From Candidatus Woesearchaeota archaeon CG1_02_57_44 (GTDB lineage Archaea > Nanobdellota > Nanobdellia > Woesearchaeales > CG1-02-57-44): DNA of 42,690 bases. A model generated the notes under the pieces. That model had not been told where the DNA came from and made no database searches. It saw only the letters and a program-made list of their open reading frames with translations. The first letter of the stretch is position 1. Each line of letters begins with the position of its first letter. The DNA is taken from positions 1 to 42,690 of the forward strand of contig MNWW01000002.1 in the NCBI GenBank assembly GCA_001871415.1. The letters are read 5' to 3'. The position numbers and the translations under genes are program-made. Positions 4,253 through 20,365 of the stretch are shown here, in pieces.

Positions 4253-4282
4253 AAAAGAAAAAAATGTACCCTTATGGGTACA
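4253..4282 (-). terminator. hairpin + oligo-T overlapping archaellin stop codon
   Basis: Minus strand TGTACCC-ATAA-GGGTACA followed by TTTTTTTCTTTT. Confidence 0.55.
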
Positions 4283-4853
4283 AGCTGATTCTCTTGTCCA
4301 CCATCAGGTCCGGTGTGGCGGTATCTACGACCAGTGGCGCACCTACCATGGGTACAAGTGTCAGCTTCACATCCTCGCTCTCATTAACAGAGCGGGGGGA
4401 TTGCAGGCATACTTGTACGACATCTCCCTTGGTCAGATATCCTGTCTTATTGTTGGTGCCTGTTATCTGCCACTTCACGCCGAAATTCAGACCGGCTCCC
4501 ATATACGCGGTGTTTGAGCAATCAATGGATTGATTATACTCATAATCTGACGACTGATCCTTTAGGTTTAAGCTTACCAGCGTATCAGTGAAACGTAGCT
4601 CTTCAGAACCTGAGGCGAGCTTTACTGTCCAGTAGATGTAATCCAGGTCTTGGTCGCTGCCATCTTCTCCATAGACCTCGACTGCGCTGAGGCTGGTTCC
4701 TACTTCCTGTGTTGTGGCTTTGCCTGTGGCAAGTGCCTTGTTTTGCAGGGTTCCTGTGGTGCTGATGAGCACGCTTGCGGCTACTGCTGCCACAAGAATC
4801 ATGGCGATGAATATAATCAATGTTCCCATTCCCATCTCAGCTTTCTTTTCCAT
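4272..4853 (-). CDS. flaB: archaellin (A1)
   Basis: Class III signal [38 protein letters not shown]; archaellin-like C-terminus; GGAGG RBS. Confidence 0.93.
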   Translation of the reverse strand: MEKKAEMGMGTLIIFIAMILVAAVAASVLISTTGTLQNKALATGKATTQEVGTSLSAVEVYGEDGSDQDLDYIYWTVKLASGSEELRFTDTLVSLNLKDQSSDYEYNQSIDCSNTAYMGAGLNFGVKWQITGTNNKTGYLTKGDVVQVCLQSPRSVNESEDVKLTLVPMVGAPLVVDTATPDLMVDKRISLYP

Positions 4854-4868
4854 TGTTTTGTCCTCCCT

Positions 4869-5483
4869 CTATGGGTATATCGGAATTCTCGTATCCACCA
4901 TCAGATCTGGCGTACTCGAATCAATAACCATAGGTGCGCCCACCATAGGCATCATAGTCAATTTAACTCCTTCACTTTCATTAATCGCCCTTGGCGTCTT
5001 AATGCATACCTGCACGACATCTCCCTTTGTCAAGTACCCGCTCTTGTTGTTGGTTCCTGTAATCTGATAGTTCACTCCAAAATTTGATTGATTTAATAAG
5101 GTCATATTATAGGCAGCGCTGACATTCTGATAGTAACTCGTATTGGCACAACGCACCGACGTATTATACTGATAATCCAATGAAGAATCCTTGAGATTGA
5201 GGCTAAGCAGCGTATCTTGCAACCTGATTTCATCTGATCCGCTTGAAAGTTTTATTGTCATGAACAAGTATTCTATATCTTGGTCGGTTCCATCTTCGCC
5301 ATATGCCTCAATCGCTCTGAGTGATGTTCCAACTTCCTGGCTAGTCGCTTTTCCCGTACTCAACGCTTTATTTTGTAAAGTTCCCGTGGTGCTTATCAGA
5401 ACCTTCGCAGCTACCGCGGCGACCAGAATCATAGCTATAAAAATGATGAGGGTGCCCATGCCCATCTCGGCCTTTTTATCCAT
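4869..5483 (-). CDS. flaB: archaellin (A2)
   Basis: Same N-terminal pilin-like helix; GGAGG RBS; many NxS/T sequons. Confidence 0.93.
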   Translation of the reverse strand: MDKKAEMGMGTLIIFIAMILVAAVAAKVLISTTGTLQNKALSTGKATSQEVGTSLRAIEAYGEDGTDQDIEYLFMTIKLSSGSDEIRLQDTLLSLNLKDSSLDYQYNTSVRCANTSYYQNVSAAYNMTLLNQSNFGVNYQITGTNNKSGYLTKGDVVQVCIKTPRAINESEGVKLTMMPMVGAPMVIDSSTPDLMVDTRIPIYP

Positions 5484-5535
5484 TGAATTCTCCTCCGCCC
5501 GACCAATAATCTACATCCTTTTCCGGATGTTCTGA

Positions 5536-5552
5536 TATATATACTTGTCGGT
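5536..5552 (-). promoter_or_regulatory. BRE-TATA promoter for archaellins A2-A1
   Basis: Minus strand ACCGACAAGTATATATA. Confidence 0.55.
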
Positions 5553-5597
5553 CGTCTTTATAAACGAGGGGTGTGAATCTGTATCTTAGTTGGGGTT

Positions 5598-6215
5598 CTA
5601 TGGATAAATGGCTATGCGGCTGTCCACCATCAGGTCTGGCAGGTTCCCTTCGACCAGGAGTGGCGCCCCTATCATGGGGACGATAGTGACCCTAAACTTT
5701 TCACCCTCAAATATGTCTCGGGGCGTTTTCAGGCAGATCTGCACTACATCGCCTTTTGTGATATATCCGCTTCTGTTGTTGGTTCCCGCAATCTGGTACT
5801 TTATTCCAAAATTGGACTGGTTGAGCAGGGTCATATTGTAGGCCGCGCTGACATTGTGATAATAACTGACGTTATCGCAGCGCACAGAGCTGTTGTACTT
5901 ATAGTCGTAGGATTGATTGCTGAGACTGAATGAGAGCAAAGTGTCTCCGATACGTAGGGGATCTGAGCCTGAATTGAGCTTAATAGTCTGAAAATAATAC
6001 TGCACACTCTGATTCTCTCCATTCTCGGCGTAGGCTTCTACTGTTTTGATGCTGGTTCCCACTTCCTGGGTCGTAGCTCTTCCGGTTCCCAACGCCTTGT
6101 TCTGCAGATTGCCTGTGGTGCTGATGAGCACGCTTGCGGCTACTGCTGCGACCAGTATCATGGCTATGAATATGATAAGGGTTCCCATTCCCATTTCCGC
6201 TTTTTTATCAGTCAT
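5598..6215 (-). CDS. flaB: archaellin (A3)
   Basis: [27 protein letters not shown]; archaellin motifs. Confidence 0.93.
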
Positions 6216-6264
6216 CACTCAAATCGCCACCAATATACATAAGTCTATACTTATGGGGGATAGT

Positions 6265-6281
6265 CATATAAATACCTTTCG
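6265..6281 (-). promoter_or_regulatory. BRE-TATA promoter for archaellin A3
   Basis: Minus strand CGAAAGGTATTTATATG. Confidence 0.6.
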
Positions 6282-6665
6282 ATATTGTCTTACAAAGATC
6301 TCTGAAACCCAGCGTTTTTCGCACAGTCTCGCAGTAGTCGTGGCTGATTCATCTAGACTCACCTATTCCTTGCGTAGAAAGGGAATTCATCGTCAGAATC
6401 ATTAAGTCTGCAGAAACTTGAGACTCCTTGCGATGGGTACATGCACCGTCCTTCAGGACGCGCCACCTATCGCAAGAATCAGACGCAAAAATCCTTTGCG
6501 GGCTTTTGAGCGTGAACATCCTGGGGTGTTCGCTGAATCCCGCGCGGTTCGACAAGTCACACTCAATGTGAAGCAAACTCTTCTTACAAAGTCCTCTTTC
6601 ATATCAACGCTAATAATGCCCTGATTAGAAGCAGACTAAAAAGAAAAAAGATTAAAAAATAAAAT

Positions 6666-7253
6666 TTATGGGTAAATGCTTACCCTGGTATCGACCATCA
6701 AATCAGGTGTTGTCGAATCAACGACCAGCGCTGAACCGACCATGGGTATCAGACTGATCTTGAGATCCTCAGCTTCATTGATTGGCCTTGGCATGTGCAG
6801 GCACAATTGGACGACATCACCCTTTGTCAGATAACCCGTCCTGTTATTAGTTCCTGTTATCTGCCATTTTGCTCCGAACATGGCCGAACTGGCATTGAAC
6901 TGGCTTGTATTCGTGCAATCAACGCTCTGATTATATCCATAATCGCTAGATATGTCATTCAAGTTCACGGTGACCAGCGTATCTATCAATCGAATCTCAT
7001 CTGATCCCGAGGCCAGTTTGATAGTCTCATAGATGTATTCCAGGCTTTGGTTGCTGCCGTCCTCTCCGTACAGCTCGACCGCGCTGAGGCTGGTTCCAAC
7101 TTCCTGCGTGGTGGCTTTGCCTGTGGCAAGTGCCTTGTTTTGCAGGGTTCCTGTGGTGCTGATGAGCACACTTGCTGCGACCGCTGCGACCAGTATCATG
7201 GCAATGAAGATGATGAGTGTACCCATGCCCATCTCAGCTTTCGTTCCTTTCAT
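6666..7253 (-). CDS. flaB: archaellin (A4)
   Basis: [15 protein letters not shown]...; GAGGT RBS; T-rich tract downstream. Confidence 0.93.
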   Translation of the reverse strand: MKGTKAEMGMGTLIIFIAMILVAAVAASVLISTTGTLQNKALATGKATTQEVGTSLSAVELYGEDGSNQSLEYIYETIKLASGSDEIRLIDTLVTVNLNDISSDYGYNQSVDCTNTSQFNASSAMFGAKWQITGTNNRTGYLTKGDVVQLCLHMPRPINEAEDLKISLIPMVGSALVVDSTTPDLMVDTRVSIYP

Positions 7254-7324
7254 GATATCGACCTCATTTTTTATTGGCTACTCTCAAATGTCAATAATAC
7301 ATGTTATTTTTTTGGGAATACTTG

Positions 7325-7340
7325 TATATTAATCTGTCGA
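7325..7340 (-). promoter_or_regulatory. BRE-TATA promoter for archaellin A4
   Basis: Minus strand TCGACAGATTAATATA. Confidence 0.5.
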
Positions 7341-7423
7341 TTAACTTTCGAATCTATAAAATTCAGACTTTTTCAATCAAAACGGTCTTATGCCGTCTCT
7401 GACTCCATGCCCGGCCTGACTCT

Positions 7424-8008
7424 TCATGGAAATAAAGAGACTCTCTTGTCCGTCACCTGATCAGGAACCGAGACCTCCAGTATGGTTGGTGAACCTGCCA
7501 TGGGGGTGATGCTCACGCGTATTTTTTCCCCTTCCCGTATTTCTCTTGGTGCGATCATGCAGACCTGGATGACATCTCCTCTGACAAGATAACCACTCTT
7601 ATTGTTAGTCCCTGTGATCTGATATTTGACGCCGAAATCTCCCCCTGCGGCAAGCGTGCTTGTGTCAGTGCACGAACCTGAAGCGCTATAGAGGTAGTCT
7701 GCGGTCGTGTTTGACAATTGCATCCTGATAAGTGTATCACTGAATTTTATGGCGTCTGATCCTGCTCCAAGTTTCACGGAAAGGTAGAGGTGATCGACCG
7801 TCTGATTGGATCCATCTTCTCCATACAACTGGACGGTTGAGATGACCGTGCCGACCTCTTGTGTCGTGGCCTTACCAGTGGTCAATGCCTTTCCCCGCAG
7901 CGCGCCTGTTGTGCTGATGAGCACACTAGCCGCGATTGCTGCGACCAGTATCATGGCTATGAAGATGATGAGTGTACCCATCCCCATTTCAGCGTTCTTA
8001 TCCACCAC
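7424..8008 (-). CDS. flaB: archaellin (A5)
   Basis: GTG start, [25 protein letters not shown]. Confidence 0.92.
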   Translation of the reverse strand: MVDKNAEMGMGTLIIFIAMILVAAIAASVLISTTGALRGKALTTGKATTQEVGTVISTVQLYGEDGSNQTVDHLYLSVKLGAGSDAIKFSDTLIRMQLSNTTADYLYSASGSCTDTSTLAAGGDFGVKYQITGTNNKSGYLVRGDVIQVCMIAPREIREGEKIRVSITPMAGSPTILEVSVPDQVTDKRVSLFP

Positions 8009-8042
8009 AACACCCCCCCATGAGTATCAGGTAGGGGGGTCT

Positions 8043-8057
8043 TATTTAAAGATTTCG
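8043..8057 (-). promoter_or_regulatory. BRE-TATA promoter for archaellin A5
   Basis: Minus strand CGAAATCTTTAAATA. Confidence 0.6.
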
Positions 8058-8216
8058 TCTATGCTGATGCGCCATGCCGCAGGATCGCCGACGACACAAG
8101 TGCCGCCTTGGGCCTCTGCGTCCGCAGCTGGCGGCCAAACAAATCTGGATGGCGCATGGGCCTTGAACAAAGAACCCTTGAACAAAGCTCAACGCGTTCG
8201 GTCAAAGAACCCAGAA

Positions 8217-8244
8217 TAATAAAAAATTCCCGTATTCACGGGAA
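8217..8244 (-). terminator. hairpin + oligo-T overlapping archaellin A6 stop codon
   Basis: Minus strand TTCCCGT-GAAT-ACGGGAA then TTTTTTATT. Confidence 0.55.
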
Positions 8245-8856
8245 GATGTGGATGCGCTTGGCAATCATTAGCTCAGGTGCGCTGCTTTCCGTAACAACAG
8301 GGTTGCCGACCATGGGCACGATGGTGACCTTGATGTCTTCACCTTCGCGCACCTTCCTGGGCGATTGCCAGCACAGCTGGATGACGTCGCCTTTGGTGAC
8401 ATAGCCGCTTTTGTTGTTCGTTCCTGTTATCTGGTACTTCATGCCAAAATCTCCGCCCGCTGACATGGTGCTGATGTCATCACAATCAACACTTGCGCTG
8501 TATCCGTAGTCCTGGGACACGTTATTCAGACCTACGGTCATCAGCATGTCTGCCAGTCTGACGGGATCAGAACCGCTGGACAATTTCACGCTCTGATAAA
8601 AATAGTCCACTGTCTGCGCTGTCCCGTTCTCTGCGTAGATGCGCACCACCTGGATGCTGGTGCCAACCTCTTGTGTAGTAGCCTTTCCTGTCGCAAGAGC
8701 CTTATTCTGGAGATTGCCCGTGGTGCTGATGAGCACGCTTGCTGCGATTGCCGCGACAAGTATCATGGCTATGAAGATGATGAGTGTGCCCATTCCCATC
8801 TCAGCCTTGCGCCTCAGACGATGCATTCTCCTTCCGCTTTTTTCGTGATTCGACAT
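8236..8856 (-). CDS. flaB: archaellin (A6)
   Basis: Longer basic leader ...[25 protein letters not shown]. Confidence 0.92.
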   Translation of the reverse strand: MSNHEKSGRRMHRLRRKAEMGMGTLIIFIAMILVAAIAASVLISTTGNLQNKALATGKATTQEVGTSIQVVRIYAENGTAQTVDYFYQSVKLSSGSDPVRLADMLMTVGLNNVSQDYGYSASVDCDDISTMSAGGDFGMKYQITGTNNKSGYVTKGDVIQLCWQSPRKVREGEDIKVTIVPMVGNPVVTESSAPELMIAKRIHIFP

Positions 8857-8933
8857 GATATCACCTCTTATTATCCTGGTGTTGATGTTAATATGTCAAT
8901 ATACATTTTAGTACCCTAATTTGGTGTATCATG

Positions 8934-8947
8934 TATATAAGCTTTTC
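8934..8947 (-). promoter_or_regulatory. BRE-TATA promoter for archaellin A6
   Basis: Minus strand GAAAAGCTTATATA. Confidence 0.6.
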
Positions 8948-9342
8948 TCTCTATCCCTTATAAGGTATTTAAAGAACTCGGGTATGGCGATGGCATCTTT
9001 ATAAGCAATATATCAACAAGACTAATGCTATCAATAGCTATCAATAAGACGTATGCGTCCTACCTGTCTTGGACGCGAATATCGATTGCCATAGCAACTG
9101 TCGCTGCCAAAATCCGGCATGTATCAGGTATTGCACAATTATCTGTACGAACCCTTTTCACAAAGAATTATTGCTGACCTAATCCTGGATTATCCTAACA
9201 TGCTATTGCATTAACTGGCACTCTCTTTTTTCAAGGAATCCTATACAGAACGCTATACATCACGCGCGTGGTTAAGTCGAGAATTCATTTCAACTTCTGG
9301 AGCACTACCTTTTCAGAGAAAACGGATTAGAAAAAATACAGT

Positions 9343-9375
9343 AAAAAAGAAAAAATATGTACCCTTATGGGTACA
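9343..9375 (-). terminator. hairpin + oligo-T overlapping archaellin A7 stop codon
   Basis: Minus strand TGTACCC-ATAA-GGGTACA then TATTTTTTCTTTTTT. Confidence 0.55.
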
Positions 9376-9952
9376 GGCTGATGCGCTTATCTACCATCAG
9401 GTCCGGTGTCGCTGTGTCAACCACCAGCGGGGAGCCGACCATCGGGATGAGACTTACCTTGATGCTCTCGCCCTCAAGCACTTCTCTTGGCGCGACAAAG
9501 CATACCTGCACCACATCTCCTTTCGTGAGATAGCCGCTCTTGTTGTTGGTGCCGGTGATCTGATACTTGATGCCGAAATCTCCACCCACTACCAGGCTTG
9601 TTGAAGTGTCGCAGTCATACGCTGATGCGTACTCATAGTCAGCAGATGTGTTGTCCAGATTCATGCTGAGCAAGGTATCGCTAAAGCGGATCTCGTCAGA
9701 ACCCGAGGCCAATTTAATGGTCATGTACATGAAATTGACAGACTGGTTGGTTCCGTCCTCGCCATACAATTCGACTGCGCTGAGGCTGGTTCCTACTTCC
9801 TGTGTGGTGGCTTTGCCTGTGGCAAGTGCCTTGTTTTGCAGGGTTCCTGTGGTGCTGATGAGCACGCTTGCGGCGACTGCTGCCACAAGAATCATGGCGA
9901 TGAATATAATCAATGTTCCCATTCCCATCTCTGCCTTTCGTTGCCAATGCAC
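9365..9952 (-). CDS. flaB: archaellin (A7)
   Basis: GTG start after [20 protein letters not shown]. Confidence 0.92.
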   Translation of the reverse strand: MHWQRKAEMGMGTLIIFIAMILVAAVAASVLISTTGTLQNKALATGKATTQEVGTSLSAVELYGEDGTNQSVNFMYMTIKLASGSDEIRFSDTLLSMNLDNTSADYEYASAYDCDTSTSLVVGGDFGIKYQITGTNNKSGYLTKGDVVQVCFVAPREVLEGESIKVSLIPMVGSPLVVDTATPDLMVDKRISLYP

Positions 9953-10197: not shown

Positions 10198-11874
10198 CTA
10201 TCCAAGCATGCTGCCAAATCCCGGGATGATGTTTTGCGTTGCTGCGGGGATGACGACGCTCAGTACTGCGCCTATCCAGAGCATGAAGACCAAATCTATG
10301 AAACTCGCGGATAACATACCGCCGTCTACCAACTTCACAATGACGCTAGAGATGACGCTGTGTACGATAATAAGGATGCCGATGAGCAGCAGGACCCTGT
10401 CCATATTCGTTGCGGCAAGGTTCGGCGAGATGCCTCCGAGCACATCCTGCATATTGCTCGCTCCTTGCATGGGCGAGGAAAAGACTCCTCCGATGATTTC
10501 TGAAATTTTTGCTGTGACATAGATGGACGCGGAGAACCCGACCAGCGACCCATACAGGGCGCCTTTGAGGCCTGATGCGAGCTGCAGTCGCTGCATGCGC
10601 AAGGATACAAGCCTCTGAAAGTTCCTGCTGACTATCTCTCCCACCTTCTCTCCATCGCCTCCGAGGTAGATGGATTCGCTGAAAATCTTGCTGAAGTGCT
10701 GGATAAGGTGGCTTCCGGACTCTCCTGCGAAAAACAGCCAGCATTCGAATTTCTCAGATCCGACACGAAGCCTGCGATACAGATTGTGCATCATATCATT
10801 GATGGGTCCGAAGTCGTGCACCAGGATGATTTTCAGGCTGCTGAGCATCGCGCCATTACGCGCGCGTACAGCTGAACCAAGTGATCTGACAAAAGCCGGA
10901 AAGAAGGTGTCTCGGCGGAGTACATCCTGCTCTTCCCGCGTGGCCAGCCATCCTGGAATAATCAACGGTGTCGCACCAATAGCGACGCCGACCAGGAATG
11001 GCAGTCGGGTAAAAAATACAAGAATTATCAGCAGTATGGCTGAGATGGGCGCTGTTATCAGGACTGTCAGACGCACTTTTCGCATGCCGGGGTCTTTGAC
11101 TTGCAGGTTATGGCAGATCTTGTCAGCAGGAACGAGCGCTTTGACCAGGAACAATATGACGCCGTCGATGACGACGATGGTGAGGATGGCGTACTGAGCA
11201 ATGACTTCCAGACTGATGCCCATGAGTAGTGGCATCAGCAAAGAGATGCTGAGCATGAACGCTATAGCCACGGTCAGCGAGGTGAACAGGCTTTCTATCA
11301 TCCTGATGCTTTCCAGGCTTTTCTTGTACTCTAGCTCATACGCGTCCATGACCGCGTCCTGTTCTTCCAGCAGGAATGTTTCGATGTCCTGGCCAAAGTC
11401 CATGGCGACCGCGAAGCGGTCAAGAAAATCCGCGAATGCCTCGCTTGGTGAGAGCGCGCCAATCCGCTTGCATGTTTTGGGAAACCCCATGGTCCATTTC
11501 TTGGCGAGATAGAAAATTTTTTCCGCTATCTTGGATATCTCGCCAAACGCGCGCTTGCTGGCTATAAGGCGGAACAACACGGTCCTGTTGATTTTCATGG
11601 TGCTGACTGTGCCAGCGTAGGTGATGAAGAAATGCAAGTTGCCGTCAATGTCTGTTTTCTTGTTGAGAAACAGACCAAATGGATAGACAATCATGAACAA
11701 TGTGCCAAGGACGAGAGGTATTGCTGCCAGGGAGCGGGTGATGGGAATGAACGCGAATACGACAGCGCAGGCGATACTGGTGCCCAGCGTGGGTAGGGCG
11801 AACTTGAGCAGATATTCTGACACGGACAGATACCCTAAAGTCGCTATTGCTCTGGAAAGGTTGAATCGTTTCAT
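10198..11874 (-). CDS. flaJ: archaellum membrane platform protein FlaJ/ArlJ
   Basis: 558 aa multi-TM GspF/TadC-like protein; FADFLDRFA, RRLRVG, FAGESGSHLI, GEIVSRNF motifs; follows flaI. Confidence 0.93.
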   Translation of the reverse strand: MKRFNLSRAIATLGYLSVSEYLLKFALPTLGTSIACAVVFAFIPITRSLAAIPLVLGTLFMIVYPFGLFLNKKTDIDGNLHFFITYAGTVSTMKINRTVLFRLIASKRAFGEISKIAEKIFYLAKKWTMGFPKTCKRIGALSPSEAFADFLDRFAVAMDFGQDIETFLLEEQDAVMDAYELEYKKSLESIRMIESLFTSLTVAIAFMLSISLLMPLLMGISLEVIAQYAILTIVVIDGVILFLVKALVPADKICHNLQVKDPGMRKVRLTVLITAPISAILLIILVFFTRLPFLVGVAIGATPLIIPGWLATREEQDVLRRDTFFPAFVRSLGSAVRARNGAMLSSLKIILVHDFGPINDMMHNLYRRLRVGSEKFECWLFFAGESGSHLIQHFSKIFSESIYLGGDGEKVGEIVSRNFQRLVSLRMQRLQLASGLKGALYGSLVGFSASIYVTAKISEIIGGVFSSPMQGASNMQDVLGGISPNLAATNMDRVLLLIGILIIVHSVISSVIVKLVDGGMLSASFIDLVFMLWIGAVLSVVIPAATQNIIPGFGSMLG

Positions 11875-11979: not shown

Positions 11980-13605
11980 CTAGACCTTGAAGGGGAGCGC
12001 TTTGACGCCCCCGAAGTGGTAGAGCTTGGTGATCTTCCAGACATCGTAATAATTGAATATCTTCTCTTCTACCATACGCCTGATGATGTTCGCGCGCAAT
12101 GTCAGTTCATCGTATATCTTCCTTGGATCAGCGTAGCCCTGGGCCATGGCTATCTTCTGCTCGAGGATGTAGCTGTTGAACATGCCCCGAAAGTTGTGCA
12201 CATCGTCCTGCGCGTTCCAGTCAAAGACGGTCCTGGTAATCATTTTCTTGAGGGGCTCATAGTAGCGCTCGATCTCCGTGAGGCTGACAATGCGCCTTGC
12301 CATACTGCCATGCAGGCGGATAGCGAGCTGGATGAGCACCAGGTTGAGGTTGTCAACAAACGTGATGGGGACACTAATGGGATGGCCCGTGATACGCTGT
12401 ATCATACTGGTGGGACTTGCCGCGTGAAACGTGCTGAGTACGGGGTGGCCTGTCTGCATGGCCTGGAAGGCGATACTGCCTTCTTTTCCGCGGATCTCTC
12501 CCACAATGATGTAGTTGGGGCGTGACCTGAGGGCCGCGGCCAGCAAGTCATCGTAGGTGACATCAGAGCTTTTTCCGGCTTCCCTGGTGAGCAGGTGCTG
12601 CCACACATCATGGGGCAGCTTGACTTCTGGTGTGTTCTCTACACTGTAGACTTTGTCGTCTGGTTTGATGAAGGTGCAGATGGCGTTGAGTGTGGTGGTC
12701 TTGCCTGAGGCGGTCTCTCCGCAGATGAACATGTTCATGCCGTTTTCCAGGGCGATCCAAAGGTATGCGCCCAGTTCGGCGCTCATGGTGCCCCAATTGA
12801 CGATCTGCGGAACGCTGGTGGGTACATCGGAAAACTTACGCAATGTGAAGCTGCTGCCTTCCAGGCTGATGTCTCTGCCGTAGATGAAGTTGGCGCGGCT
12901 GCCATCGGGCATCATGGCGTCTACCACGCTATGGGCGTCTGATGTTGGGCGCTCGACGCGCTCGGACACCTCGACGATATAGCGGTTGAGCTCCAGATCA
13001 TCACGGAAGATGACGCTGGTGTAGACCAGGCCGAAGATCTTATGGACGGTCTTGATGGCGCCAACACCCGTGCAGTGGACGTCCTCCAGATACGGGTCTT
13101 TGAGGATGGGATCAATCTTGTGAAATCCTATCCTGTTGCGTATCAGGAAGTACTTGATGAGCTCGAACTGCTGAGGGGTCATGACTACTTTGCTGCTCAA
13201 TCCTGCTTTAGCGCCGCTTTCTGTGACCTGGCAGACCTTCTGGAGCAGCTCTATCAGGATCGGCTCGATTTTGTCCAGTTTTTCCGGGACTGGCAGGCTA
13301 TGGGCTATCTCGATGAGCTTGTCCATGACCCTCTCAAAGAGCTTCTCGTCTTCAGGCTCCATGACTGGCTCAATGGCATAGTACTGGACCTGTCCGAATT
13401 CGTTCTTGTAGATGTGGATGAAAATAGGATCCCCCACTGGATAGATGAGGTTGGGCATCTTCATGCTCTTCATTTCCCGGCCCAGTTCAGGGTAAAACTC
13501 AGGTACTCCTCTCTCAGCGGCAATAGACTTGAGATATTTTTCTACATGAGGAAACTTCTTGCGAGCTTCGTCCAGATTCTTTGTGATGACTTTTTCCATG
13601 CCCAC
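11980..13605 (-). CDS. flaI: archaellum assembly/motor ATPase FlaI/ArlI
   Basis: NLIYPVGDPIFIHI N-terminus, GETASGKTT Walker A, RSRPNYIIVGEIRG, FQAMQTGHPVLSTFHA. Confidence 0.96.
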   Translation of the reverse strand: MGMEKVITKNLDEARKKFPHVEKYLKSIAAERGVPEFYPELGREMKSMKMPNLIYPVGDPIFIHIYKNEFGQVQYYAIEPVMEPEDEKLFERVMDKLIEIAHSLPVPEKLDKIEPILIELLQKVCQVTESGAKAGLSSKVVMTPQQFELIKYFLIRNRIGFHKIDPILKDPYLEDVHCTGVGAIKTVHKIFGLVYTSVIFRDDLELNRYIVEVSERVERPTSDAHSVVDAMMPDGSRANFIYGRDISLEGSSFTLRKFSDVPTSVPQIVNWGTMSAELGAYLWIALENGMNMFICGETASGKTTTLNAICTFIKPDDKVYSVENTPEVKLPHDVWQHLLTREAGKSSDVTYDDLLAAALRSRPNYIIVGEIRGKEGSIAFQAMQTGHPVLSTFHAASPTSMIQRITGHPISVPITFVDNLNLVLIQLAIRLHGSMARRIVSLTEIERYYEPLKKMITRTVFDWNAQDDVHNFRGMFNSYILEQKIAMAQGYADPRKIYDELTLRANIIRRMVEEKIFNYYDVWKITKLYHFGGVKALPFKV

Positions 13606-13632: not shown

Positions 13633-14376
13633 TCAGCTTGCGCTGGTGATTTCCATGACAATGCCGACTCCTGCCCTGACGCGAAACGCGATGTTCTCCT
13701 CCACATCAGATACCGCCCCGTTGAAGCGTTCTACTCTGATGAGTTTGGTCACCGTGCCAAAGCGCTCTACCGTGCCCAATTTCATATACACTTCTGAGAC
13801 GCTCTTGAGCAAGGTCGAGTAGGTGTTGTCATATTGCTCAGGGTCGATGGTGAAGATGATGCTCTTGTCCTGGCTGGTGACTTTGCGAAAGAACTTGATG
13901 ACCTCAAAGGCCTCCTTGAGCGACACATCATCAGGCACTATCCACCCATTCAGGGAATCGAAGATGATGACGTCGCTGTGAAACAGCTCTTCCATGCGTA
14001 GCCGTGAAAGAACGCTCCTGCCCACGTTAGTATCACCTACATACGGGAAGACTGACACGAAATTCAGCTGGCCGGTGACCAGCGCGTCATTGATATCGTA
14101 TTGCAATGATTTCATCTGATTGACGAAGCTCGGCAATGACAGCTCGGTGCTGACATAGGTGACTGAGACGCCGTGGCATACCAGACCATAGCAGAAGCGC
14201 TGGGCGATGATGCTCTTGCCAAGCGCGTTGCGGCCTTCAACTAGCATAAAACCATTCTTTGGCAAGCCTCCGCCGAACTTGTTGTGCAGTTCATCCTTGC
14301 GGATGCGGATGGGGAATACTCCTGAGGGTGCGGCAATCTGACTTGGATCCGGAACCTGTAATGCTGCTTCTGCCAT
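13633..14376 (-). CDS. flaH: archaellum RecA/KaiC-like protein FlaH/ArlH
   Basis: DELHNKFGGGLP, GRNALGKS, YVSTE, IIFDS, FRVRAGVGIVMEI. Confidence 0.93.
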   Translation of the reverse strand: MAEAALQVPDPSQIAAPSGVFPIRIRKDELHNKFGGGLPKNGFMLVEGRNALGKSIIAQRFCYGLVCHGVSVTYVSTELSLPSFVNQMKSLQYDINDALVTGQLNFVSVFPYVGDTNVGRSVLSRLRMEELFHSDVIIFDSLNGWIVPDDVSLKEAFEVIKFFRKVTSQDKSIIFTIDPEQYDNTYSTLLKSVSEVYMKLGTVERFGTVTKLIRVERFNGAVSDVEENIAFRVRAGVGIVMEITSAS

Positions 14377-14504: not shown

Positions 14505-14969
14505 TCATGCGATACTAAAACTGTCAAGATCCTTTCCTCCATACTGCGTGGTCACCGTGACCGTGTGGGTACCCGCGCCGATATGATCATAGACAATGGC
14601 CTGGGCGCTCTCATCAGGGTCCCAGATGCCCGGATTGACCAGTTCGGTGTCATTGAGCACGGAGAGGTTTCGGGCGGTCGTATTGCGTAGGTAGCGTAGT
14701 CCATCAATGAACACGTCTGTCAGATTGACCGTGAGCTTGGTCTTGCCGCTGTTAAGGATGGTGATCGTAGTATAGTTATGGGTCGTATTGTAATTCACAT
14801 TAGTGATGGTTATATCTGTCTTAAGATTGCTGGCCATCAGATCCTGACGAACACCAAGCGCTGCGCCTGATTCCGTTATATAGCCTTTGAAAAGGATGGC
14901 GACCGTGGTCGTCACGGAGAGTAGTGCGATAAAGAGAATCAGGTGCGATGCCACATTGCCGAATCCCAT
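14505..14969 (-). CDS. flaG: FlaG/FlaF-like archaellum stator protein
   Basis: MGFGNVASHLILFIA N-terminal TM, KTDITI, NSGKTKL, DVFIDG, WDPDE; ATG 14969 has an upstream GAGG. Confidence 0.8.
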   Translation of the reverse strand: MGFGNVASHLILFIALLSVTTTVAILFKGYITESGAALGVRQDLMASNLKTDITITNVNYNTTHNYTTITILNSGKTKLTVNLTDVFIDGLRYLRNTTARNLSVLNDTELVNPGIWDPDESAQAIVYDHIGAGTHTVTVTTQYGGKDLDSFSIA

Positions 14970-15060
14970 CCTCAGGTCCCTCTCGTCATGTTCATTGTGT
15001 TCATCTGCCCGAGCCCTGCAAAAGCGGTTATTCGGTAATCCCAAATAAGCAGACCAATGG

Positions 15061-15130: not shown

Positions 15131-15706
15131 ATGGAAGGCTGCGTCTCCTACAATCGCAAGAGCTTCGAGCTGCTGGATTTCCTGCCTTCAGACATGGACG
15201 CAGGGCTGAAAAGCACTATCAACCAGTATTGGCACCAGCGCATTGCCCGTGAGATTCTCATAGCGCTCAGTAGCGCCGAGGAGATACCCATGTCGCAGCT
15301 GCGCGACCAGATAGGTCACAGCGCATCGACGCTACATGAGAATATCAAGCGTCTACAGGAAGTGGGTCTCATTGAGGCTGAGATGAGCTTCAAGGGCAAC
15401 AAGCAGCTGCTGCTGCGGCCACGCGTCATCTTTGTGTCAGACAATCCGAAGGTGGCGGCCGCGTTCCAGAAATTCTTTCAGGGACTGTTTATTGACACCA
15501 ATGCCACTAAGATTGTCCTCGCGTTCCTCAACGAGAACCCTGACAAATTCTTCACCTCAGCGGAAATAAGCTCAAGGACCAATATGCCAAAGACGCAGGT
15601 GGAAATAGCGCTCTCAAACTTGGAATCCCCGATTACGCGCGCCTACTCAACGTTCTACCGCTCCGCACCATTTGAGAAGCAGATTAGCTATCGCATCCGT
15701 AAATGA
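15131..15706 (+). CDS. ArsR/winged-helix transcriptional regulator with two HTH-like units
   Basis: MSQLRDQIGHSASTLHENIKRLQEVGLI and FTSAEISSRTNMPKTQVEIALSNL. Confidence 0.8.
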   Translation: MEGCVSYNRKSFELLDFLPSDMDAGLKSTINQYWHQRIAREILIALSSAEEIPMSQLRDQIGHSASTLHENIKRLQEVGLIEAEMSFKGNKQLLLRPRVIFVSDNPKVAAAFQKFFQGLFIDTNATKIVLAFLNENPDKFFTSAEISSRTNMPKTQVEIALSNLESPITRAYSTFYRSAPFEKQISYRIRK

Positions 15707-15839
15707 GTCGATATTCTGTGAGTGAGTGGATTGTTTTTATCTAGATTGCCACTGCATCGTCGATTATGTGGTCTCTCATCGATTATGTCATCTGCTATCG
15801 TCTCTTTAGCAAGTTTACAGCATACCGCCCCGGGCATGC

Positions 15840-17900
15840 TTAGAGCATACCGCGAAGCAATGACATGTCCTGCGCGAGCATCTGGAGCATGTGAGCCGCG
15901 TCTCGAGCACCAGCTATGCTTTGAGCGAGGTCAGGCATAGCCAGAACGCCTCCTACCCACAAGGAAAAGTCATTTCGCTGTCCGGTGACATGATGTTGAA
16001 ACGCTTCAGGCCTCATGCTGCCAAGCCCATGGGCTAATTCCAGGAGATTGCGCACGCATATCCTGTCACAGGTCCAGAACGCGCGCTCGGGAGCCGCTTC
16101 TTCGAGCAGTCGCATGACCTGCCGGAGGAATTCCTGCTGCTGCTGGCGAGGTACTGATAGATCAACAATGCTGGTGGCATTGGCCCAGGGGTTTTGGCCT
16201 TGAAGCACCTGTAGGACCAGGGTGGACCTGTTGTTGATCGCCAACAGCGCTGCCTGCCTTGTTGTGGTGCTTTCAAGTGCTCTTCCCAGTCCTGGCAGAT
16301 GCAAGCTATTAGACACCCAGGATGAAAAATCGCCGTGTTGCTGGTGGCCTTGGTATGTTGCCTCATCCAAAGACTGGATGCACTGCGCCAGTTCCAGCAC
16401 ATTGCGGACACAGGTGCCATTGACCGTCCAGAATGCGTGCTCCTGCGATGTCTCGTGCAGCAGCAAGAGCAGTTCTTGAATAAAGCGTTTCTGCTGCTCC
16501 GCTGGCAGCCGGGGAAGCAGCAACTGCAACTCCTTTGCGACAGCCTCTTGCTGGCGTAGCTCCTGCATGGTACGGTCCAGCAGAGCATTGCGCTCTTCCT
16601 CTGGCAGTTTGGCCAACAGACGGGTAAGGGTTTCATTGTCGCTGGCGGGGTTTGCTGCAGCGCCAGCCGCAACGGTCGTAGGTTGCCCGAACACAGGAGG
16701 AGTAGGCACCTGCACTGCGGCAGCAGTGATAGGCATTGGTTGCGTTGTAGCCTGAGGCGCAGGTGGCATCCCAGAAGGCGCACCTGTTTCGTTACTCGTC
16801 GTGGATTGCGAAGTGAGGGACTCTTTAGGTCGAAGGTCGCCCGCTCTTCCAATCATGGTCTGGTTGCTGGTCATGGATTCCATTATTTCGGATGCGCCAG
16901 ATGTATTGACCGTGGTGGAAGGATTCCTTGGCGTATCCTGATCTTGCAGCACACGGGGTATCTCGGGCATCACCGATATGGGTTGCGGCGCAGACTTCGG
17001 CGTATCTGCTGTCAGGTTATCAGCAGCTGTCGCAATGCTCGTCTCCGAGCCCTCGTCAGCATCAGGTGCAGTCCTTGATGCCTTATCGATATCAGGATTT
17101 CCAGCAACTCCTGCAACCACCGGCTCGACTGAAGCTGTAGGTCCGCTGATTTCTTTGGCGTGCAGGGATGCGATGGCATCCTCCAATTTGGGAATGGCTA
17201 TCTCCTCTGATGTATGCTCGACAGGATGCGCTTTTTGTGGAGAGCCGCCTAGTAGGTCCTTAGCGCCCCTGACAAATTCCTCTGACCTCTGAGCGCTATG
17301 TGCAGTGATGGCCGCCTCCTGGGTCTGTTTTGTGATGGAATCTTCGATACTGATAGACGCTGTTCCTGTCGATCCACCTGCTCCCGACGCATTGTTACCA
17401 GGCACGTGTATGCCTTCTTGCGGAGGCGCTGCACTAGCCTGCTGCCGCTGCTCAGCTGAGTGATTGGCGCTGCTGTGCCCATTGGTCTGCTCATCCACGA
17501 AGGGATTGAATTTATTCGTTATGAGTTCATACAGTCTGGTGAATTTTTCCAAAGAAGCCTCTATCTTGTCGATGCTCTTGAACTTCTCCTGCAGCGACAC
17601 CATGTCAATATCACCGCTGCTTTGCTTGGCCGCATCATTGACCTTCTTTTCCAGCGCTGCGACTTTGTCGTTCAGCGTATCATGAAGTTCCTTCAACTGG
17701 TCTTCTATCACTTGTAGTAATTGCTCTTCATGACCAGAACTCTCTTCCTGTTCATCAGCAGGAGCATCCGCAGTCTCTCCGGATGCAGCTTCAGCAGGGG
17801 CTTTGGCGTCCACTGCAGGCGCGCCAGGCACAGCTCCCGCAGGTCGTGCTTCTGGTTCTTTTTTTCGGCCTTTCAGGAAGGAAAAGCCTTTGACTGCCAT
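15840..17900 (-). CDS. FlaC-like archaellum accessory protein fused via long low-complexity linker to two DUF5752-like domains
   Basis: Coiled coil ending in LYELITNKFNPFVD (FlaC signature); two repeats of AFWT-x2-G/R-x-CVRN-x-LEL...H...DFS-x-WV. Confidence 0.8.
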   Translation of the reverse strand: MAVKGFSFLKGRKKEPEARPAGAVPGAPAVDAKAPAEAASGETADAPADEQEESSGHEEQLLQVIEDQLKELHDTLNDKVAALEKKVNDAAKQSSGDIDMVSLQEKFKSIDKIEASLEKFTRLYELITNKFNPFVDEQTNGHSSANHSAEQRQQASAAPPQEGIHVPGNNASGAGGSTGTASISIEDSITKQTQEAAITAHSAQRSEEFVRGAKDLLGGSPQKAHPVEHTSEEIAIPKLEDAIASLHAKEISGPTASVEPVVAGVAGNPDIDKASRTAPDADEGSETSIATAADNLTADTPKSAPQPISVMPEIPRVLQDQDTPRNPSTTVNTSGASEIMESMTSNQTMIGRAGDLRPKESLTSQSTTSNETGAPSGMPPAPQATTQPMPITAAAVQVPTPPVFGQPTTVAAGAAANPASDNETLTRLLAKLPEEERNALLDRTMQELRQQEAVAKELQLLLPRLPAEQQKRFIQELLLLLHETSQEHAFWTVNGTCVRNVLELAQCIQSLDEATYQGHQQHGDFSSWVSNSLHLPGLGRALESTTTRQAALLAINNRSTLVLQVLQGQNPWANATSIVDLSVPRQQQQEFLRQVMRLLEEAAPERAFWTCDRICVRNLLELAHGLGSMRPEAFQHHVTGQRNDFSLWVGGVLAMPDLAQSIAGARDAAHMLQMLAQDMSLLRGML

Positions 17901-17967: not shown

Positions 17968-18576
17968 TTACCTAATCCTGATACGCGCTCTCAGGAACAC
18001 GTCCGGAACACGCAGATCCAATATCTCACTCGCGCCGGAGCTCGCCACAAGAGACAACTCGAAATCATCTTGGCTGCCCAGCGCGTGCGTGGTATTCAGT
18101 TTATATCGCACAGCAAGCAACTCTCCAGCTTCCAGCAGGATATTGGTGTTACCGACTTTCGGGAATATGCAATATTCCTCCTGGTTCTGAAGGTTATCAA
18201 ACGTGCAATTGGCGATGGTGCTGATAGACTGATTCAGGTCCGCAGACAAGGTAGTCTCTCCGGAAACAAAGCTTAGTCCAACAGAACTGAAGGATACAGG
18301 ATCCGCGCCCGCTCCCAGCCTGGTTATCAACTCAATGTTCTCGATGTTTTCCGCGGTGAGGTTCGGATACGCATACACATTGAGGACCTCAAGGCCACTG
18401 ACCAGTCGCGTCCTTGCTGCCTCTTCCACAAGAAGCGCTTTCTGCTGCAATTGTCCTGTGACCTTGACAAGGACGCCTGCCGCGACCGCGGATACAAGAA
18501 TAGTCGCGATGAAGATAATGAGCATACCTATGCCCATAATGGCCTTACGGTCTTGGAACCAGTGAATTTTTGTCAC
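17968..18576 (-). CDS. flaB: divergent (minor) archaellin A8
   Basis: DRKA/IMGIGMLIIFIATILVSAVAAGVLV..GQLQQKA; likely GTG start at 18576, about 24 nt below a CAAAAAGTTTAAATA promoter (18600-18614). Confidence 0.85.
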   Translation of the reverse strand: MTKIHWFQDRKAIMGIGMLIIFIATILVSAVAAGVLVKVTGQLQQKALLVEEAARTRLVSGLEVLNVYAYPNLTAENIENIELITRLGAGADPVSFSSVGLSFVSGETTLSADLNQSISTIANCTFDNLQNQEEYCIFPKVGNTNILLEAGELLAVRYKLNTTHALGSQDDFELSLVASSGASEILDLRVPDVFLRARIRIR

Positions 18577-18666
18577 CTGCAGGTCATTCCCCTTGTTGGT
18601 ATTTAAACTTTTTGCTGACATGGACACAGATACTGATAGTAATCTATGCGCATCTAAAGATGGCAT

Positions 18667-18882
18667 CTACATGGTCTGCTCATAGATCTTGATGAGCACA
18701 GCTGTCTGGCCGAGCATAACCAGCACGACGATGATGAGCATCTCCATAATCGCCGTCTCCGGGGTCAGGTTCCCGCTGCCCATAGCGGCGTAAAAGACAT
18801 AGATCGCCGCGAGGCCGAAGAGCACCATGAACGTCATGATGACTTTTTCCAGAACATGCGATTGGACGCGTTTTTTTAGCAT
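18667..18882 (-). CDS. small 2-TM membrane protein
   Basis: Two hydrophobic helices, GAGGAGG RBS, upstream ACCGAAACAGTTAAATA promoter. Confidence 0.7.
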   Translation of the reverse strand: MLKKRVQSHVLEKVIMTFMVLFGLAAIYVFYAAMGSGNLTPETAIMEMLIIVVLVMLGQTAVLIKIYEQTM

Positions 18883-19075: not shown

Positions 19076-20365
19076 ATGGTTCCCCCCTCGCATCCTCTGC
19101 TCGCTTGGCAGGATGTGCAAGGCATCATCGACGATGGAAAGTTCGCTGTTGTGCTCATAGCTCATCGTGACCGCGACTTCCAGTCCGTCCCAGCCCCTGA
19201 CGCATGGTTGACTACGGATCAGAAGCCCGATGCGGGCGCTTGTTTCATCATCGCTGGACAATCACAACGGCCGCTGAACCGACATCATCTCTTGTTCCGT
19301 GAGATGCTTTCAGAAGGGGACTATGCTCTCTATTCCAGCGACTTGCAGATGATTGCCTTGCAGATGGCTGCTGACAACAGCGGGGAGTACTACTCGTTCG
19401 GTTGCATGCCTGTTCTGCGCAGCATGACACAGGACGCGCAAGGAGCACCATGCAGACCGACGGAAGGAGAGATGTTCTGCGTCTTGCAGGCGACCCCTGA
19501 TTCAGCGCGACGATATGTCCGCAGCTCCATCAGGCTTGCGGCAGGAGACGGAGCGTTTCCTCTATGGGGTTATGCAGGTCAAGGCGAATACGTGCCCGCG
19601 ATTCCGTTTGAACCTCCTGTCCATTATGATCCCTCAAAGGCATTCTACTTCACCCCCACGCAGCAGCACGTGCTCCCTGATGCAGACCGACGCATCCGAT
19701 TCGCAAGAATCGATGATGACGGCTCTGTGGTGGTGGCATGCGATGCCCCTGACGGGATTCTGCCTTTTGGCACCGGTTCCGTGGATGGCATCGCCTCCCT
19801 CGAATGTCGTGTGGAGACTTTCTGCTGGACACGCGTGCTGGTGGATGGGGACGAACTGGAGACGTGGAACTACTGGGAAACAGATGTAGGGTATCGCGCG
19901 CAGCTGGGTTTGGTATTTCACAGCGTGGACGCTTACGAGACACTCCAGACAGTTGACGCGCTAGGAGGGCCCTATGTCATCTATCAGCATCTGCCAGTGA
20001 GGGCGGGCCCAGAGGCATCTGGAGATGCTGCGGATACTCAGTCATCCCGGCCTTTGACCTGGTTGGCTTACGTTCCCGAAGATCGCTCGATGGCGGCGCC
20101 TGATATTGCATCAGAGCTATTAAGCAAGGCAGACTTGCCCATGGGAGATTTTCCTCGTGTTGCTCAGTCCTGTGGTCTGTGCGCTGTGACCTCTGCGGAC
20201 TTGCGCGAGCAGGAAGTCCGCCTGCCTGTGCAGCTGCATTACGGTTCGCTTGCCGCATTGCATGGCCCGCAGATGTTCCGCATCTCGCCCATGGGTGATC
20301 CTTTATATGGCTTTAAGCACGGTGAGCGGCTGCAACGACTGGCACATGGGCTTAAGGGCTCATGA
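19076..20365 (+). CDS. hypothetical protein (429 aa)
   Basis: Long ORF with TATA-like CTAAATA ~25 nt upstream of the ATG; no recognised family. Confidence 0.65.
   Translation: MVPPSHPLLAWQDVQGIIDDGKFAVVLIAHRDRDFQSVPAPDAWLTTDQKPDAGACFIIAGQSQRPLNRHHLLFREMLSEGDYALYSSDLQMIALQMAADNSGEYYSFGCMPVLRSMTQDAQGAPCRPTEGEMFCVLQATPDSARRYVRSSIRLAAGDGAFPLWGYAGQGEYVPAIPFEPPVHYDPSKAFYFTPTQQHVLPDADRRIRFARIDDDGSVVVACDAPDGILPFGTGSVDGIASLECRVETFCWTRVLVDGDELETWNYWETDVGYRAQLGLVFHSVDAYETLQTVDALGGPYVIYQHLPVRAGPEASGDAADTQSSRPLTWLAYVPEDRSMAAPDIASELLSKADLPMGDFPRVAQSCGLCAVTSADLREQEVRLPVQLHYGSLAALHGPQMFRISPMGDPLYGFKHGERLQRLAHGLKGS

Follow-up and report, generated by a model that had tools for sequence, protein, structure and literature searches.

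The window analysed here, a stretch of 42,690 nucleotides from contig MNWW01000002.1 of the groundwater organism Candidatus Woesearchaeota archaeon CG1_02_57_44 (assembly GCA_001871415.1), contains a complete archaellum operon. Within this operon, a single intact open reading frame (ORF) of 686 amino acids (aa) is found on the minus strand at 15840-17900. Based on its sequence, we assign the encoded protein to the ArlC (FlaC) family, while its C-terminal repeats, judged by sequence profiles and a predicted structure, belong to the OrfY/DUF5752 family and adopt a two-repeat helical fold. In a whole clade of Woesearchaeota archaella, FlaC joined to such a repeat is the most frequent form of ArlC, and it is not peculiar to one genome. 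This clade-wide architecture, an ArlC head with an OrfY tail, is well supported as a variant of a known motor part.

Head, linker and tail of the ArlC-like protein

The gene and its parts are as follows, with the basis of each assignment given last.

15840..17900, minus strand: arlC-like gene, 686 aa, consisting of a FlaC coiled coil, a disordered linker and two OrfY/DUF5752-type repeats (ORF, Pfam, independently assembled contigs)
17493..17735, minus strand: FlaC_arch coiled-coil region, residues ~56-136, ending in LYELITNKFNPFVD (PF05377 and a motif invariant in 9 aligned sequences)
16581..17489, minus strand: low-complexity linker of ~300 residues, residues ~138-440, presumed disordered (composition; no family match)
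16203..16454, minus strand: OrfY/DUF5752-type repeat 1, residues ~483-566, with the degenerate signature GH-QQHGDF against HHV..NDF (custom single-repeat hidden Markov model (HMM), E 1.2e-16; AlphaFold2 (AF2) model)
15849..16100, minus strand: OrfY/DUF5752-type repeat 2, residues ~601-684, with the canonical signature FW..., HHV..RNDF..W (PF19027 at residues 616-664; AF2 model; alignments)

The host assembly (1.53 Mb, 77 contigs) has a completeness of 82%. An independently assembled groundwater contig (X1) spans the whole stretch and agrees with the window, and another groundwater contig (X4), whose sequencing run is not flagged as source, matches 15500-17780 with zero differences. The agreement of these contigs indicates that the fusion is not an assembly artefact. 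An assembly chimera of two genes was considered and rejected on the same grounds, together with the recurrence of the fusion in 19 genomes. The highest 19-residue Kyte-Doolittle mean over the whole protein is 1.18 and we therefore assign it no membrane segment. Several broad searches were uninformative. An NCBIfam scan of the 686-aa protein gave no match, and the full-length protein retrieved only itself from a set of 5.8 billion proteins, where the low-complexity linker probably took up the word candidates. Searching the C-terminal piece alone against genome contigs retrieved no relative, and in listings of RNA data no entry was given as containing the arlC-like gene.

The N-terminal coiled coil terminates in LYELITNKFNPF. 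An earlier note on this DNA, made from its letters alone, had placed this end at ~17493-17537 and had proposed a FlaC-family protein at an archaellum locus; both proposals stand, with LYELITNKFNPFVD located at 17493-17534 (minus strand), a FlaC_arch match and its motif, and an operon containing arlF, arlG, arlH, arlI and arlJ. The Pfam FlaC_arch family (PF05377) matched residues 103-135 with 27.1 bits (E 5.6e-6; cut-off 27.8) when the protein was scanned with hmmscan, and reached 30.6 bits, above the cut-off, at 17496-17612 in a six-frame search of the genome. In an alignment of the window protein with eight FlaC proteins of relatives, F120, L123-Y124-E125 and N132-P133-F134 are invariant, and a local FlaC HMM places the window protein with its relatives. 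The coiled coil is followed by the Ala/Pro/Ser/Thr-rich linker of ~300 aa that the note had also described: A, P, S, T, G and Q make up 58% of residues 138-444, and relatives carry linkers of variable length at the equivalent place.

The two repeats, each of ~80 residues, resemble each other with 41% identity over 49 residues (E 1e-10). They had been described as two similar domains of ~70 aa, and their coordinates (residues ~483-566 and 601-684) and mutual likeness hold, but not their being separate domains: both the PF19027 (DUF5752) model and OrfY consist of two repeats, and thus the two 'domains' of the window protein together correspond to one OrfY/DUF5752 unit. The window's own PF19027 match covers residues 616-664 with 17.8 bits against a cut-off of 23; repeat 2 was also the best-matching part when the C-terminal 247 aa were used for library searching. 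This phmmer search against 1.84 billion representative proteins returned 911 matches at E<=1e-3, 22 of which had E<=1e-10. PF19027 was found at E<=0.01 in 43 of the 46 top library matches scanned, which bears out the DUF5752-like character suggested earlier, and 32 of the 46 reached at least the 23-bit cut-off; these homologues include library matches at E down to 5e-19. The library matches map onto the two halves of the 208-position PF19027 model, at ~15-85 and ~125-190. When a profile built from 15 two-repeat proteins was compared with the Protein Data Bank (PDB), OrfY of Thermoproteus tenax (4CSO) was found with E 2.7e-8 as the sole PDB sequence at E<=1.

Structure prediction is in good agreement with this assignment. 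The AF2 model of the repeats, with a predicted local distance difference test (pLDDT) score of 81.7, shows each repeat as a short beta-hairpin plus five helices; pLDDT is mostly above 85 for repeat 1 and above 90 for repeat 2. The top match of the model was again 4CSO, both with Foldseek (probability 0.99, E 8e-3) and with VIA-align (Z 7.7 over 138 residues; runner-up 5.4). The root-mean-square deviation of the superposition on 4CSO is high, at 14.7, as the two repeats are placed differently relative to each other or their mutual placement is uncertain. VIA-align also aligned a single repeat with ViaA-N (Z 5.4) and with the ArnB paralogue VWA2 (Z 4.8), at a level that is noise for helical domains. 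OrfY and PF19027 proteins have in common with the C-terminal module of the window protein a two-repeat helical unit, a short beta-hairpin and the H..NDF..W signature. In an alignment of 15 repeats, those linked to FlaC preserve the longer signature F..H(V)..NDF..W, with repeat 1 of the window being degenerate at this place. Nearest neighbours in a protein atlas were DUF5752 clusters, commonest in Nanobdellota and Woesearchaeota, with scores that serve as leads only. Our literature search found no paper naming DUF5752 and none on OrfY of Thermoproteus tenax, queries for TreT/OrfY gave nothing relevant, and no published function for the OrfY/DUF5752 family was found in spite of the solved structure. 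OrfY is reportedly linked to the treT gene.

The repeats were also compared with the FlaD/E domain. PF04659 (Arch_fla_DE) gave no match at E<=1 in the window protein and no match across the whole assembly. An hhalign comparison of the 15 repeats with 11 FlaD/E domains yielded a probability of 0.7%. Fold comparison was indirect, the repeat model and a FlaD/E model each being matched to structure libraries: the FlaD/E domain model from a relative (pLDDT 86.5) is all-helical without a beta-hairpin, its best structural match has Z of at most 3.8, and 4CSO is absent from its 50 listed rows. We rejected a divergent FlaD/E domain, given the hhalign result and the fact that the FlaD/E model does not retrieve OrfY whereas the repeat model does. 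By profile and by fold search, the repeats do not match FlaD/E, as had been proposed, while a very remote fold kinship between the two may exist.

Recurrence across the Woesearchaeales

To place the fusion in a wider context we surveyed 201 sampled genomes of the window organism's order. FlaC_arch scored above cut-off in 30 of them and Arch_fla_DE in 3. The 30 best FlaC ORFs, 29 above cut-off and one at 27.0 bits, were classified using Pfam and an HMM for the single repeat, 75 positions long and derived from 195 repeat instances among the library matches.

19 of 30 FlaC ORFs: FlaC fused to the repeat (3 of the 19, window included, have two repeats)
2 of 30: repeat in the next or an overlapping frame, split or frameshifted (G024, G089)
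3 of 30: FlaC fused to FlaD/E (G014, G040, G157)
6 of 30: FlaC with neither repeat nor FlaD/E

The same position in the operon is occupied by both forms. The slot between the ArlG-like gene and arlF holds FlaC+FlaD/E in G014, G040 and G157 and FlaC+repeat in G003, G021 and G030; the arlC-like slot in the archaellum operon is likewise filled in G003, G021, G024 and G030. The architecture, called undescribed in the note, is present in 19 of 30 FlaC ORFs and is not peculiar to one genome; passages of published surveys do not mention it (see below).

As a separate approach, loci of named genomes were collected using ArlI as an anchor. These overlap the counted genomes and are therefore not an independent sample. 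FlaC+repeat was present in 12 of 80 such loci, in all 12 cases with an ArlI at least 58% identical to that of the window, and the repeat was not found outside the Woesearchaeota-like group among the 80 loci. Nanopusillus and a second DPANN group showed fused FlaC+FlaD/E, and euryarchaea separate FlaC and FlaD/E genes. The closest ArlI proteins to that of the window come from Candidatus Woesearchaeota metagenome-assembled genomes (MAGs) and show 56-65% identity, in line with the DPANN origin assumed in the note. A quick maximum-likelihood tree of ArlI was calculated from 41 rows, namely the window and 40 of the 80 loci; the partial loci L084 and L088 were omitted, as were most of the euryarchaeal rows. 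Eleven of the 12 FlaC+repeat loci were placed on the tree together with the window, and all of these lie in the Woesearchaeota-like clade. The tree groups all 13 FlaC+repeat rows in a single clade of 24 (SH-aLRT 99) that has no FlaD/E row, with the FlaD/E fusions in clades of their own. This is most simply read as OrfY-type repeats having taken the place of FlaD/E just once, at the base of one lineage of Woesearchaeota archaella.

Two further observations were made on these genomes. On contig C8 of G089 (locus L033) the FlaC part (1141-1959) and the DUF5752 repeat (431-1411) lie in overlapping but different frames, which is either a real frameshift or a MAG sequencing error. In addition, the ArlI proteins of MAG records titled 'uncultured Methanosarcinales', 'Bdellovibrionales bacterium' and 'Sedimentibacter sp.' fall inside Woesearchaeota/DPANN clades and these titles therefore look mislabelled; loci with such odd titles include L058, L059, L066, L068, L070, L071, L076, L077, L080, L081, L085 and L086.

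Possible roles of the OrfY-type module

The window protein can be compared with two kinds of archaellum accessory. In common with the euryarchaeal ArlC/D/E ring or 'switch complex' (including ArlCE and CDE fusions), it has a coiled-coil end of the form LYE...N..NPF, the operon position, and a small helical C-terminal module behind a long linker, and relatives from the same taxonomic order carry a true FlaC+FlaD/E fusion in the equivalent slot. Unlike in ArlC/D/E, the C-terminal module of the window protein is of the OrfY/DUF5752 type without detectable FlaD/E similarity, and neither CheF nor other Che proteins were found. Unlike ArlX, which has an N-terminal membrane anchor, it contains no hydrophobic segment and bears the FlaC signature. 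It is neither ArlD/E nor ArlX. According to passages of PMC13705601, ArlX is a coiled-coil accessory of Che-less archaella in Thermoproteota that replaces ArlCDE around ArlH/ArlI. As far as passages of PMC13705601 and PMC4858521 go, archaella are described as having ArlCDE (in various fusions) or ArlX, and 167 Nanobdellati genomes are given as having an archaellum. Archaellum motors are currently sorted by this accessory, with ArlX found in Thermoproteota and ArlCDE, which receives CheF, in Euryarchaeota (passages of PMC13705601 and PMC7534055). An OrfY/DUF5752 tail on ArlC is not mentioned in the passages of PMC13705601 and PMC4858521, whose supplements may list DPANN accessory arCOGs, and none of the papers listed by our literature search for Woesearchaeota, archaellum and FlaC names Woesearchaeota.

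No match to CheF, CheW or MCPsignal was obtained in the whole assembly. The claim that the window has neither che or cheF genes nor FlaD/E can thus be extended to the 82%-complete genome, with CheF, CheW, MCP and FlaD/E not found. A lone Response_reg (receiver) domain is encoded on host contig C40 at 7865-8200. CheF was found in 0 of the 201 genomes of the order, and so the relatives that keep FlaD/E are also without it. The C-terminal slot of ArlC therefore has a Che-independent job in this order, and the exchange of FlaD/E for the repeat is not explained by loss of chemotaxis.

These results describe a whole Woesearchaeota archaellum clade with an ArlC head, a different tail and no Che system found. 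The C-terminal slot of ArlC is shown to be exchangeable, and archaellum searches based on ArlCDE or ArlX profiles will score these loci wrongly. The OrfY/DUF5752 family further gains a second defined cellular context for testing its function.

With respect to function, we give about an even chance to the following reading: the protein is the ArlC of a Woesearchaeota-type archaellum whose FlaD/E domain was replaced in the clade ancestor by an OrfY module serving as a Che-independent adaptor or anchor. The FlaC coiled coil would oligomerise where the ArlH/ArlI/ArlJ core faces the cytoplasm, as euryarchaeal ArlC does, and the disordered tether of ~300 residues would hold the two-repeat OrfY module away from the core. 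The module would then act as a Che-independent binding or adaptor module that takes over the scaffolding or anchoring role of FlaD/E, and may bind a partner or pair with the OrfY repeats of neighbouring subunits instead of receiving CheY/CheF signals. We infer both the docking to the motor, placed by homology and synteny, and the binding target of the module. An adaptor or anchor role seems most likely to us because FlaD/E fills the same slot in Che-less relatives.

Several points weigh against this reading. The window's own Pfam scores lie under both curated cut-offs (FlaC 27.1 vs 27.8; DUF5752 17.8 vs 23), and the genome is only 82% complete. The adaptor or anchor role was chosen by analogy with FlaD/E. 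In the ArlI clade, 10 of the 24 loci have no arlC-like gene within the DNA examined, and operon linkage is therefore not universal; the arlC-like gene of these ten loci may be located elsewhere, as it is downstream in L068, L069, L074 and L076. Lastly, the other contexts of the repeat, with winged helix-turn-helix (wHTH) regulators, glycosyltransferases (GT), HAD proteins, KaiC and HerA, speak for a regulatory or ligand-binding module just as much as for a scaffold.

These contexts are diverse. OrfY/DUF5752 proteins are mostly small and stand-alone, or are encoded beside or fused to glycosyltransferases, whereas the unit in the window is the tail of an archaellum protein. The genome-wide check for other DUF5752 proteins that the note had suggested was run, and the host genome has only two other DUF5752 genes, which adjoin each other (221 aa and 124 aa) and come immediately downstream of a glycogen synthase gene (596 aa, PF05693) on contig C37 (locus L057:5741-8635), in a cluster that also contains GH57 and GT4/GT5 genes. 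Such a GH57/GT cluster is the 'canonical' carbohydrate-enzyme context of the family. Elsewhere, DUF5752-type repeats are fused to KaiC-like ATPases (P0030 and P0039, with two or three repeats), to HerA-like ATPases with CarboxypepD_reg repeats (P0025, P0081) and to a GT1 glycosyltransferase (P0151). Atlas clusters, as leads only, join the repeat to wHTH regulators in Thermoproteota and lie near HAD/S6PP sugar-phosphatase clusters. All of these contexts fit a portable binding or adaptor module and a small sensor domain alike.

A sensory role of the module is a real, if clearly lesser, possibility: it might bind a small molecule or polymer, e.g. a metabolite of trehalose or alpha-glucan metabolism, and modulate assembly or rotation via the ArlC ring, providing a metabolic-state input in a Che-less archaeon. 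This would be a sharper version of the signal input proposed in the note; the data suit anchoring or scaffolding just as well. A sensory role would be consistent with the fusions to wHTH regulators, GT1, KaiC-like and HerA-like ATPases, with the resemblance of the repeats to HAD/S6PP cluster models and with the position of the host's two other DUF5752 genes next to glycogen synthase. The signature kept in FlaC-linked repeats suggests that the same biochemical property is probably retained, and the missing Che genes in the host and CheF in the order would leave no competing input. However, DUF5752 and OrfY proteins have no known ligand, the part played by the conserved residues could be entirely structural (an aromatic core plus N/D helix caps), and the atlas scores of 0.82-0.85, with TM-scores mostly below 0.5, are leads only. 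The lack of CheF in relatives that keep FlaD/E also argues for a Che-independent and probably structural job of the slot. If a sensory role were true, the archaeon would have a simple non-Che route to motility control. Taken to its furthest, ArlC-OrfY would form a third class of cytoplasmic archaellum accessory beside ArlX and ArlCDE. Its module, of the kind also met alongside glycogen synthase, TreT-type glycosyltransferases and sugar-phosphate phosphatases, would sense carbon-storage or compatible-solute metabolism, and a sensor tethered to the motor ring would let Che-less DPANN archaea tune archaellum assembly or rotation directly to their metabolic state; we regard this as rather doubtful.

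Docking of the OrfY repeats to ArlH or another KaiC-like ATPase, such that the C-terminus and not the FlaC coiled coil would attach the protein to the motor, seems unlikely. 'Rosetta-stone' DUF5752-KaiC fusions do exist (P0030, P0039), ArlH is itself KaiC-like, and a further KaiC-like gene of the host shares 36% identity with the ATPase part of P0030. According to passages of PMC7534055, the localisation of ArlCE and ArlD in Haloferax depends on ArlH; the two proteins attach to the motor chiefly through ArlH and are both required by CheF. The KaiC domains of the fusions, however, are remote from ArlH (23% identity over 122 residues, E 7e-5), no DUF5752-KaiC fusion occurs in the host genome, and the repeats are also fused to very different partners (HerA, GT1, wHTH). 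Co-folding of the C-terminal module with ArlH, the latter aligned with 24 homologues encoded directly upstream of ArlI, gave a score of 0.00 in both runs, which speaks neither for nor against docking, using a module piece of residues 500-686 from which the beta-hairpin of repeat 1 (~487-499) was cut off. It is very improbable, finally, that the module binds DNA or a regulator and ties archaellum assembly to expression, e.g. by sequestering the adjacent wHTH protein. The molecule name of 4CSO, 'ORFY PROTEIN, TRANSCRIPTION FACTOR', hints at such a link, as do the wHTH+DUF5752 clusters and the wHTH gene adjoining the arlC-like gene in the window, G003 and G021. Yet the PDB name is the depositors' label, for which the literature search found no supporting paper, the DNA-binding part of the wHTH fusions is the wHTH itself, and some other FlaC+repeat loci, e.g. 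G024, lack the wHTH neighbour.

Operon surroundings and related proteins

The operon is arranged in the order arlG-like, arlC-like, wHTH, arlF, arlH, arlI and arlJ, followed by seven archaellin genes. Around the arlC-like gene, the window contains the following features.

18667-18882, minus strand: small membrane protein
17968..18666, minus strand: archaellin-fold protein in the ArlG-like slot, upstream of the arlC-like gene (PF01917, 74.9 bits; NCBIfam flagellin subfamily; weak ArlG match)
15131..15706, plus strand: winged-helix regulator, divergent, between arlC-like and arlF (MarR_2, HTH_24)
14505..15044, minus strand: ArlF-like stator protein (PF01917; NCBIfam ArlF 61.4 bits, under its cut-off of 110)
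13633..14376, minus strand: ArlH, KaiC-like ATP-binding protein (PF06745, 43.9 bits)
11980..13605, minus strand: ArlI motor ATPase (T2SSE, 107.9 bits)
10198..11874, minus strand: ArlJ platform protein (T2SSF, 25.5 bits; position after arlI)
4272..9952, minus strand: seven tandem archaellin genes (PF01917, 98-112 bits each)

The ArlG-like slot is likewise filled in relatives. The seven archaellins (193-206 aa) sit downstream of arlJ and not at the head of the operon. The wHTH protein encoded at 15131-15706 is 191 aa long with two winged-helix regions (residues 41-84 and ~129-165), and homologues occupy the equivalent slot of genomes G003 and G021, while several further Woesearchaeota loci have them just upstream of arlG/F; we consider it a candidate archaellum regulator. 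Further away, a 926-aa protein (20676-23456, minus strand) shows weak squalene-cyclase/prenyltransferase-like repeats, a late hydrophobic segment and a Lys-rich tail, and its gene is faced by a 429-aa ORF without family match (19076-20365, plus strand).

Outside the window, the KaiC-like gene of the host is located at 36012-36713 on contig C40, the contig that also encodes the receiver domain. We also noted a set of DUF5752 paralogues of 400-450 aa (L138:6978-8297, L139:7259-8473 and L140:7671-9011) that combine a coiled coil and two DUF5752 repeats with an acidic region and a basic motif at the N-terminus but lack the FlaC motif. The basic N-terminal motif, M-x-K-x-L-x-G-K..KK, is common to these paralogues and the ArlC-like proteins. 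In two of the three loci examined the paralogues adjoin giant Big_13/CARDB surface proteins, being encoded directly after them in G023 and G038.

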